From: Escherichia phage teqdroes
Sequence record: NC_054932.1
Direction: 5' to 3' (one strand)
DNA: 64,000 bases
The notes below the pieces were generated by a model. The model saw only the letters and a program-made list of their open reading frames with translations, had not been told where the DNA came from and did no database searches. Every line of letters starts with the position of its first letter. Positions within the stretch are counted from its first letter, which is position 1. A program made the translations under genes and the position numbers. Of this stretch, positions 14,513-16,366 are shown one piece after another.

Positions 14513-15093
14513 TGATTAAATTGGTATTCGCTTATTCTCCAACTAAAACGGTCGAAGGATTTAATGAATTAGCATTCGGTTTAGGTGATGGTTTACCATG
14601 GGGACGAGTTAAAAAGGACCTCCAGAATTTTAAAGCTCGTACTGAAGGTACAATTATGATTATGGGTGCTAAAACGTTCCAGTCATTATCTACATTACTT
14701 CCTGGTCGTAGCCATATTGTGGTGTGTGACCTTGCGCGTGATTATCCTGTAACTAAAGACGGCGATTTAGCACATTTCTATATTACTTGGGAGCAATATA
14801 TAACTTACATTTCTGGCGGCGAAATTCAAGTGTCAAGCCCTAATGCACCATTCGAGACTATGCTTGATCAGAATTCCAAAGTAAGTGTAATTGGCGGACC
14901 TTCTCTGTTATATGCTGCGTTACCTTATGCGGATGAAGTAGTTGTTTCTCGCATTGTTAAAAGGCATCGTGTTAATTCAACGGTTCAATTAGACGCAAGT
15001 TTTCTTGATGATATAAGCAAGCGTGAAATGGTTGAAACGCATTGGTATAAAATAGATGAAGTAACAACCCTTACGGAATCAGTATATAAATGA
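14512..15093 (+). CDS. frd: Dihydrofolate reductase, 193 aa
   Basis: Recognised as T4 DHFR (MIKLVF...[15 protein letters not shown]...[11 protein letters not shown]); length 193 aa. Confidence 0.95.
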
Positions 15094-15113
15094 AATAACG
15101 CGTGGCGGAAAAT

Positions 15114-15461
15114 ATGAATTTTAATTATTACCCTATTCTATTAGAAAAAGACGCGAAACAGCCAAAGTGGCAGGGTCCTCAGTTTATTAAAGGTGTCTAT
15201 CAATTAGTAGTTCCTAAAGACAAGATTTATAGCAGTTGTTTCACTGAATCCGCTTGCAGTATTTTCGGTAATAGTTCTCCGTATTGGAATTTTGACATAA
15301 AGCTGGATAGAAATATCGATATTTGGTTGAAAGCTATGGATATTGGTAATATCACGTTTGATGAGAATAATTATCATATTATTGGTCGCTTTTCCAAACG
15401 CGGTAAAGAATTATATTTCACGCCTGAAATTGAGAGAAAATTTGATGCTAAACCGTATTAA
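15114..15461 (+). CDS. Hypothetical protein, 115 aa, encoded on an insertion at the frd/td junction
   Basis: ORF (MNFNYYPILLEKDAKQPKWQ...) between frd stop and td start; track start 15102 is GTG; no recognisable motif. Confidence 0.5.
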   Translation: MNFNYYPILLEKDAKQPKWQGPQFIKGVYQLVVPKDKIYSSCFTESACSIFGNSSPYWNFDIKLDRNIDIWLKAMDIGNITFDENNYHIIGRFSKRGKELYFTPEIERKFDAKPY

Positions 15462-15467
15462 TTATTA

Positions 15468-15489
15468 GCTTCATAAAATGTATTATAAT
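15468..15489 (+). promoter_or_regulatory. Candidate middle/sigma70-like promoter inside the frd/td insertion, upstream of td
   Basis: GCTTCA (MotA-box-like, one mismatch) 15468-15473 and TATAAT 15484-15489; SD AAGG before td ATG. Confidence 0.35.
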
Positions 15490-15505
15490 TTATATAAGGT
15501 ACTAA

Positions 15506-16366
15506 ATGAAACAATACCAAGATTTAATTAAAGACATTTTTGAAAATGGTTATGAAACCGATGACCGAACAGGCACAGGAACAATTGCTTTGTTCGGTAC
15601 TAAATTGCGTTGGGATTTAACTAAAGGTTTTCCTGCAGTAACAACTAAGAAGCTTGCGTGGAATGCATGCATTGCTGAGCTTCTATGGTTTATTTCCGGT
15701 TCTACCAATGTTAATGATTTACGTCTTCGCACTCATGGTAGTCTTATTCAAGGCAAAACTATTTGGGACGATAACTATGAAAACCAGGCTAAAGACCTAG
15801 GATATCATAGTGGTGAACTTGGTCCTATATACGGTAAACAATGGCGTGATTTCGGTGGTGTGGATCAATTAGTTGAAACTATTGATCGTATTAAAAAATT
15901 ACCAACTGATCGACGTCAAATCGTTTCAGCATGGAATCCAGCTGAAATCAATCAAATGGCATTACCGCCCTGTCATATGTTCTATCAGTTTAATGTGCGT
16001 AATGGTTATCTTGATTTACAATGGTACCAAAGAAGTGTAGATGTTTTCTTGGGATTGCCATTCAACATTGCCTCGTACGCTGCCTTGACGCATATTGTGG
16101 CTAAGATGTGTAATCTTATCCCAGGAGATTTGATATTTTCTGGTGGTAATACTCACATCTATATGAATCATACTGAGCAATGTAAAGAAATTTTACGTCG
16201 TGAGCCTAAAGAACTATGTGAACTTAAAATTGATTGGCCTATAGAGTTTGGAAATTGTGACACCGAAACACAGCTTTACTGGTTAACTGAATACATGAAA
16301 CCGAAAGATTTTATCCTTGAAAATTATGAATCGCATCCAGCAATTAAAGGGAAAATGGCAATATGA
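15506..16366 (+). CDS. td: Thymidylate synthase, 286 aa, uninterrupted (no group I intron)
   Basis: [25 protein letters not shown]...PPCHMFYQF... TS active-site motifs; continuous 286-aa ORF. Confidence 0.96.

Follow-up and report, generated by a model that had tools for sequence, protein, structure and literature searches.

A small gene between frd and td of Escherichia phage teqdroes and the frd/td overlap of phage T4

Bacteriophage T4 is the reference for T-even biology, and the overlap of its genes frd (dihydrofolate reductase) and td (thymidylate synthase) is a textbook case of gene overlap and translational coupling. The overlapping ATGA junction was reportedly described by Purohit and Mathews in 1984, and spontaneous T4 rII deletions between short direct repeats are said to have been reported by Pribnow et al. 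in 1981 and by Singer and Westlye in 1988. The present work concerns the same junction in Escherichia phage teqdroes (NC_054932.1), analysed within a stretch of 64,000 nucleotides, hereafter the window, in which an open reading frame (ORF) of 115 amino acids (aa), designated ORF X or simply X, lies between frd and td. T4-related genomes have plastic or 'hyperplastic' regions of accessory genes, and small ORFs vary there between core or quasi-core genes (PMC2993671). The middle promoters of T4 have a MotA box, (a/t)(a/t)(a/t)TGCTTtA, centred at -30 and located 12 +/- 1 bp from an excellent -10 element, and deviations in the box are tolerated (PMC2988021).

In the initial annotation, made from the sequence of the window, the DNA between frd and td was interpreted as an insertion or a microhomology-mediated acquisition that brought a promoter and uncoupled td from frd. 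Its coordinates for the end of frd (15093), the ORF (15114-15461) and the td start codon (15506) were all correct on re-reading, and the T4 overlap cited there is indeed present in the T4 RefSeq record, where it is 4 bp long (NC_000866; frd at 145109-145690, td ending at 145112). The difference from T4 was likewise confirmed; its direction is probably the opposite. The frd-td slot is variable in Tevenvirinae, the segment with X is its usual and most likely original state, and the T4 overlap is most likely a deletion, a reading to which we assign a probability of about 0.7. The feature itself is an ordinary, widespread and already annotated accessory-gene polymorphism.

Polarity of the frd-td polymorphism

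In a three-way alignment, T4 corresponds to the window minus one copy of a direct repeat and the DNA between the two copies, and T2 has the same segment as the window. The extra DNA relative to T4 amounts to 416 bp and is located exactly at the frd/td ATGA overlap. The breakpoints coincide with two copies of TAAATGAAA, the right one of which holds the td start (Table 1). Microhomology at both ends had been noticed initially and is confirmed, with a corrected repeat length of 9 bp and not 8 bp. The mere existence of such a repeat is unremarkable, because the 9-mer is frequent and short direct repeats are common locally. TAAATGAAA has nine occurrences in the window, where 3.1 would be expected, and is a common T-even gene-junction motif (stop or AAA + ATG + AAA); the AT-rich 2.1 kb around the site contains 19 families of direct repeats, 12 of them exact pairs of 9-11 nt. 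The informative point is the position of TAAATGAAA at both breakpoints, the mark of an event guided by homology, be it gain or loss. The T4-type junction reads ...TATAAATGAAACAATACC..., and recombination between the two copies reproduces it exactly in the alignment.

The 9-bp repeat at both ends has the form of a target duplication left by a transposon or insertion sequence, though the motif is frequent. No transposase or integrase domain was found by Pfam in X, the only ORF of the segment, which does not agree with an element of this kind, and the only candidate for terminal inverted repeats was a 9-nt AT-only match close to the ends, and the surrounding 2.1 kb contain 15 inverted pairs of this kind in all.

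The X allele was found in 354 of 517 matching Tequatrovirus records (~68%; ~361 by tblastn), including T2, T6 and RB5, with the same spacing. About 135 Tequatrovirus records have the Y allele, a 207-bp segment with an unrelated 68-aa ORF (fPS-2 type), and the T4-type overlap was present in ~3 of 60 evenly sampled Tequatrovirus rows (~5%). X also occurs in ~14 records at 90-95% identity, and the three that were opened (KMB38, Shf125875 and NHEP29) are Mosigvirus or Mosigvirus-like. Orthologues with 30-66% identity, situated after frd and before td, are known from Jiaodavirus, Kanagawavirus, Marfavirus, Moonvirus, contigs of IMG/VR and the Logan contig L025, and at least six genera besides Tequatrovirus have an X orthologue in this slot. 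In the 24 X-bearing loci mapped, X immediately follows frd and precedes td, in the same orientation, wherever both flanks could be read; another Logan contig, L026, ends inside the next ORF before td and gives the frd side of X only. X was not found outside the frd-td slot among the records and loci examined. Exact junction patterns in IMG/VR yielded four X-type, no T4-type and no Y-type junctions, a sample too small to be useful. This distribution, with T4 in the minority state, is largely the one that the initial annotation itself had described for an ancestral segment, namely the same ORF and spacing in most relatives.

As many as three small genes, in a translational chain with frd and td, can occupy the slot: X, its distant paralogue X2 and the unrelated Y. 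The window keeps only X. The complete order, frd-X-X2-Y-td, was found in L025, where each start overlaps the previous stop. X2 follows X in many genera (2317-2676 in contig L005, 2287-2634 in L007 and 4332-4673 in L025) and shares with it a C-terminal GRFxKxGxE(I/L) motif, which suggests an old tandem duplication. It was detected in 122 phage records, none of them Tequatrovirus or Mosigvirus, and td or frd was among the annotated features in ~10 of the 30 rows listed. Between Tequatrovirus and L025, a distant contig, Y (1688-1894 in fPS-2, locus L003, and 4670-4879 in L025) retains 81% identity, a conservation like that of Td. Relatives of Y with ~43% identity are present in phages of roughly 150 kb that are not T4-like, so Y may be more mobile than X. 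Hitch-hiking of X presence or absence with the td intron by I-TevI homing was rejected as a strict rule: X is accompanied by the intron in Pu-Krd-SF3, FL44 and L008 and occurs without it in the window and T2, and Y occurs with the intron in EC121 and fPS-2 and without it in Sf21.

The age of the segment was estimated from the proportion of synonymous differences (pS). Against T2, pS is 0.21 in X and 0.16 in frd; against Mosigvirus, it is 0.42-0.47 in X and 0.50-0.60 in td; against the outgroups, it reaches 0.76-0.78 in X and 0.69-0.76 in the flanks. The values of X and its flanks agree at all three depths, and much lower ones in X would be expected after a recent insertion or transfer, which is therefore unlikely; by this measure X has resided at its position for about as long as the flanking genes have diverged. 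The last 180 nt of T4 frd are 2-6 nt off those of the X-type phages, which differ from each other by up to 10. The T4 flanks are thus nested within X-bearing diversity, and the T4 overlap is read as derived. In addition, T4 lacks two ORFs that precede frd in the window, one with DUF7247 and one of 81 aa, so that T4 frd.1 abuts frd; DUF7247 is present at this place in the outgroup contigs L025 and L026, and T4 therefore appears reduced on the other side of frd, too. Four lines of argument stand behind the polarity: synteny in at least seven genera, pS tracking that of the flanks, nesting of T4 and its reduction 5' of frd.

The T4 ATGA overlap probably arose from the 416-bp deletion, with the two TAAATGAAA copies recombining or replication slipping from one to the other. 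The presence of these copies would follow from their being gene-start contexts (stop/AAA + ATG + AA), and the only survivors would be deletions that fused the frd stop to the td start in translatable form. A similar event between the TAAATGAA copies of an NHEP29-like ancestor may have led to the majority junction of Mosigvirus: recombination between these copies in an NHEP29-like allele reproduces the Mosigvirus junction, and the step from NHEP29 to p000v has the same pattern.

Several observations weigh against a deletion in T4. The overlap is the common state in Mosigvirus (p000v; td-only matches), i.e., the closest sister genus is mostly without X. The left repeat region, ATGAAATAA, is a single base (C>T) apart from the td start, ATGAAACAA, as would fit re-insertion into a T4-type junction. 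The spacer between frd and X is derived relative to NHEP29 and L025, and the NHEP29-type X allele, which is simpler, has neither this spacer nor the 30-bp block before td; the architecture seen in Tequatrovirus is therefore partly derived. Finally, td is mosaic within Tequatrovirus (pS between the window and T2 is 0.61, and only 0.16 in frd), and with free recombination among T-even phages the nesting and parsimony arguments are not strict. The contrast between td and frd places recombination breakpoints close to the junction. As a separate observation, Frd is 44-48% identical to the Frd of other X-bearing genera, with a proportion of non-synonymous differences (pN) of ~0.29 against Mosigvirus, and the corresponding identity of Td is 71-82%.

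The Mosigvirus majority, the single C>T difference and the partly derived architecture would all be expected if an X cassette had been inserted by microhomology into an ancestral ATGA overlap, duplicating TAAATGAAA and leaving two td codons as a remnant that reads M-K-stop. We consider this explanation unlikely nevertheless. X is known only from this slot, which means that a donor would already have had the order frd-X-td and the exchange would have been homologous and not junction-creating. X is the majority allele, with T4 nested in its diversity, and its pS is not below that of frd against T2 and is high between genera, as for a gene as old as its flanks. The spacer varies freely, RB5 and KMB38 do not keep the ATGA overlap, and the 9-mer is a frequent junction motif. 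The orthologues in other genera, the shared spacing and the parallel divergence speak against the acquisition proposed in the initial annotation. A variant in which the overlap was ancestral to Tequatrovirus and Mosigvirus together and X was regained early seems similarly improbable. Much less credible than either is the view of X as a free-standing, perhaps degenerate, homing endonuclease spreading by cleavage of X-less frd/td junctions. It could appeal to presence or absence at a fixed site between conserved genes, like that of T4 segG or mobE, and to a 'putative homing endonuclease' label in GenBank; yet X has no Pfam family at E<=10, no PDB sequence relative below E 0.5 and no nuclease-like fold in the searches made, and its 115 aa are well below the products of the T4 coding sequences of I-TevI (738 nt) and SegG (633 nt). 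Its divergence follows the flanks at three depths without the pattern of a recent sweep, it is translationally chained to frd and td in other genera, and it is found both with and without the td intron. Deletion in T4 from an X-bearing ancestor accordingly remains our preferred reading.

ORF X and the signals around it

The substitutions in X are those of a real gene under strong purifying selection. The window and T2 differ in X by 13 synonymous and 0 non-synonymous changes, and against the Mosigvirus copies pN is 0.032 at the pS given above (pN/pS about 0.07). X matches phrog_1928 (E=8.4e-36; X residues 4-111 on profile positions 2-125 of 126), and a profile search collected 38 clusters of the family at 50% identity, mostly of 95-140 aa. 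Its motifs are Q-x-K-W near the N-terminus and G-R-F-x-K-x-G-x-x-x-x-F-x-P near the C-terminus, and in a 12-sequence alignment Q16, W19, G27, G52, N79, G91, F93, K95, G97, F102 and P104 are invariant. Translation starts at ATG 15114, where the homologues begin with MNFNYY, and not at GTG 15102, a start rejected because its frame is interrupted in other phages by 1-nt indels in the preceding spacer.

In line with the initial annotation, which saw no recognisable motif in the ORF, no Pfam family was obtained at E<=10. PADLOC gave no match, and the best hit of a PDB sequence search had E=0.56. The AlphaFold2 model (predicted local distance difference test, pLDDT, 81.9; predicted template modelling score, pTM, 0.77) is beta-rich with one helix. 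Foldseek found no significant structural neighbour of this model in the PDB (best E 0.7), and its matches in BFVD were solely uncharacterised proteins of T4-like phages. Weak sub-threshold fold matches lean to oligonucleotide/oligosaccharide-binding (OB) folds (RPA14/32, Stn1-Ten1, Teb1 and S1 domains) and serve as a lead only. A candidate relative, P0037 (899 aa, eight repeats), was discarded as spurious, being a repetitive immunoglobulin-like protein.

GenBank labels of X are inconsistent and include 'putative homing endonuclease' and 'putative glucose-1-phosphate adenylyltransferase' (MZ501066, MZ501089, MZ501113 and NC_054937); the former is carried by the FriedrichMiescher, KarlGJung and WilhelmHis records. 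Neither label was supported by the domain and fold searches. No paper on this ORF was found by literature searches covering RB32ORF229c, frd/td of T4-like phages, and SegG and marker exclusion.

X is probably an accessory protein co-expressed with nucleotide-precursor enzymes, judging entirely from its position and translational chaining, and would probably act with these enzymes or alongside them. Against this assignment, the searches found no domain, motif or significant fold match. X is dispensable, as T4 and most Mosigvirus lack it. A bolder and rather improbable suggestion is that X/X2 could be a co-translated stoichiometric partner of the dihydrofolate reductase/thymidylate synthase pair, i.e., a small OB-like subunit or a regulator of the complex synthesising deoxynucleoside triphosphates, which was deleted in T4, and that in parallel the 30-bp block was inserted 5' of td in Tequatrovirus as a compact promoter module, uncoupling td. 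If this were true, the deletion in T4 would explain why X was never studied.

The ATG that overlaps the frd stop is the X start codon in NHEP29 and L025 (ATGAATTTT); alleles of the window type have 20-24 bp between frd and X. This spacer looks like DNA evolving neutrally: 6 of its 20 columns are variable among nine Tequatrovirus alleles, compared with 31 of 115 third codon positions. The ATG overlapping the frd stop, at 15090, does read M-K-stop (ATG AAA TAA), as first noted; its descent from the td start is not evident, because X begins at ATGA in NHEP29 and L025 and the spacer appears neutral. An AA insertion just 5' of the frd stop (TATAAAAATGA) was observed in RB5 (L033, 258-330), KMB38 (L027, 460-530) and Shf125875 (L029, 547-620). 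It shifts the frame and extends Frd by 11 residues (…VYKNEIATGGKYEF), overlapping the X start. The frd ATGA overlap is thus not conserved among X-bearing phages.

Between X and td, in the same nine alleles, only 1 of 47 columns varies, and the block TTAGCTTCATAAAATGTATTATAATTTATA is invariant (none of its 30 columns varies, compared with 31 of the 115 third positions; Fisher p=3.5e-4). None of the three Mosigvirus X alleles has the block; in them 13-15 nt lie between the end of X and td. No second copy was found in the window at up to 3 mismatches, and a copy of another promoter of the window was thereby ruled out as its source. For the promoter-like GCTTCA/TATAAT pair of the initial annotation, the positions proved right and the block that includes it invariant, but the gap is 10 bp, compared with 16-18 bp for sigma-70, and the hexamer 17 bp 5' of TATAAT is ATTATT. 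The reading as a sigma-70 or T4 early promoter was rejected on this spacing. A sigma-70 scan, moreover, gave no site at 15460-15500 (7 sites in the region versus 9.0 in shuffles).

A middle promoter agrees better with the block. Its perfect TATAAT, invariant in the nine alleles, is the -10 element required of MotA promoters, and ATTaGCTTcA at 15464-15473 keeps the GCTT core and leaves the consensus at the first T; MotA tolerates deviations in its box (PMC2988021). On the other side of the balance, the candidate box (aGCTTcA) departs from the MotA consensus and sits 10 bp from TATAAT, 1 bp less than the shortest documented spacing; a distance of 12 bp separates it only from a poorer hexamer, TAATTT. 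The relaxed pattern GCTTYA-N10-13-TANNNT has 23 matches in the window against 9.3 expected, the 15468-15489 site among them. We conclude that the block is functional, and we see roughly even odds that it is a td promoter, of an imperfect MotA type at best. The signal would then most probably be a promoter for MotA/AsiA-modified polymerase or a -10-driven one. It is less probable that the block acts in the translation or RNA processing of td, or as DNA bound by a protein, although the 10-bp gap is outside both the sigma-70 and the documented MotA ranges, the block abuts the td Shine-Dalgarno sequence, and invariance indicates constraint of an unspecified kind. An RNA element is disfavoured by the lack of stable structure in the X-td intergenic region (minimum free energy -5.2 kcal/mol, z=+1.18, no better than shuffles) and by Rfam, which at E<=1 returned only two implausible eukaryotic families, far below threshold. 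A perfect TATAAT with a GCTT-core box corresponds to the requirements of T4 middle promoters, in which the MotA box is flexible and the -10 element must be excellent (PMC2988021).

The spacer, the 30-bp block and the Shine-Dalgarno sequence of the Tequatrovirus X allele would together give td initiation signals of its own. The new Shine-Dalgarno sequence reported initially, AAGG(T) at 15495-15499, is present and conserved. Of the proposed uncoupling of td from frd, the separate ribosome-binding signal, the invariant block and the loss of ATGA coupling in this allele stand, and the promoter is reduced to the imperfect MotA type mentioned.

Layout of the locus

At 14900-15700, the window has the same sequence as Escherichia phage FriedrichMiescher (100% identity), and several hundred Tequatrovirus genomes match it at 95-99%. 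Its gene order is 59, 32, frd.2, frd.1, DUF7247 ORF, 81-aa ORF, frd, ORF X, td, nrdA.2, nrdA.1, nrdA and nrdB. The 3' end of frd is ...TATAAATGA, its stop TGA being overlapped by ATG in the same way as in T4. The td start ATGAAACAATA(C/T)CAA is kept in every genus sampled, with the exception of the Jiaodavirus-type loci L004, L016, L018 and L019, which start with GTGAATACCAA. The features of the junction are collected in Table 1.

Table 1. Features of the frd-td region in the window
Feature	Coordinates	Strand	Basis and remarks
frd (dihydrofolate reductase, 193 aa)	14512-15093	+	Pfam DHFR_1, E=1.9e-19; 97.9% aa identity with T4 Frd
Left copy of 9-bp direct repeat TAAATGAAA	15087-15095	+	alignment, repeat search; left breakpoint relative to T4
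Mini-ORF ATG AAA TAA (M-K-stop) over the frd stop	15090-15098	+	sequence reading
Spacer between frd and ORF X	15094-15113	+	6/20 columns variable in nine Tequatrovirus alleles; absent in NHEP29 and L025
ORF X, 115 aa	15114-15461	+	phrog_1928; small conserved protein, beta-rich, possibly OB-like
Invariant 30-bp block TTAGCTTCATAAAATGTATTATAATTTATA	15465-15494	+	GCTTCA 15468-15473, TATAAT 15484-15489; candidate td promoter, imperfect MotA type
Shine-Dalgarno-like AAGGT, 6 nt 5' of td ATG	15495-15499	+	sequence reading; conserved; AGGTG in Mosigvirus alleles
Right copy of 9-bp direct repeat TAAATGAAA	15503-15511	+	alignment, repeat search; right breakpoint relative to T4; holds td start ATGAAA
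td (thymidylate synthase, 286 aa, intronless)	15506-16366	+	Pfam Thymidylat_synt, E=7.2e-96; contiguous match, T4 td split

Between frd.1 (13613-13912, DUF5417) and frd, positions 13923-14512 of the window are occupied by the DUF7247 ORF (13923-14255) and the 81-aa ORF (14267-14512). Mobile elements of T4 are missing from the window at three places: segG between genes 59 and 32 (10887-12548), the td intron with I-TevI (15506-16366) and mobE between nrdA and nrdB (16897-20382). Here nrdA ends at 19161, and nrdB (19213-20382) is an uninterrupted ORF of 389 aa. At the end of frd, TATAAATG (15085-15092) fits 7 of 8 positions of TATAAATA, the T4 late-promoter motif; the same sequence is found in T4 too and is therefore outside the indel.

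Comparison with known systems

Summarizing these data, the textbook frd/td junction of T4 is likely the reduced and unusual state, and most Tequatrovirus relatives carry a constrained small gene at this place. X and X2 form an unstudied family closely tied to the phage enzymes that make nucleotide precursors; in practical terms the finding has modest weight, as X is dispensable in T4. The labels given to X, i.e., hypothetical, homing endonuclease or glucose-1-phosphate adenylyltransferase, call for caution in reference-based annotation.

The closest described system, the T4 junction, has the same genes with near-identical flanks, an ATG over the frd stop and the identical td start ATGAAACAA. 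Unlike T4, the window has 416 bp in between, with a gene and td-specific signals, and the T4 overlap is a minority within the genus. The allelic difference resembles the spontaneous rII deletions of T4 in comprising the intervening DNA and a single copy of a 9-bp repeat; in contrast to them, the frd-td event is fixed in natural lineages, has to leave a functional stop/start fusion, and has a direction that is inferred.

In the differential loss of X, X2 and Y between genera, the slot is similar to the plastic regions of T4-related genomes. It differs in lying inside an operon of nucleotide metabolism, in the translational chaining of its occupants and in the far wider conservation of X. The polymorphism of presence and absence at a precise site is also shared with the free-standing homing genes segG, between 59 and 32, and mobE, between nrdA and nrdB, whereas X is half their size, has no nuclease domain or fold and diverges in a seemingly vertical manner. 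As in the MotA/AsiA middle promoters (PMC2988021), the block before td combines a GCTT-core box 5' of a perfect TATAAT with the lack of a -35 element, directly upstream of a prereplicative gene; the candidate box differs from theirs by A in place of the conserved T (aGCTTcA) and by a spacer of 10 bp instead of 12 +/- 1.

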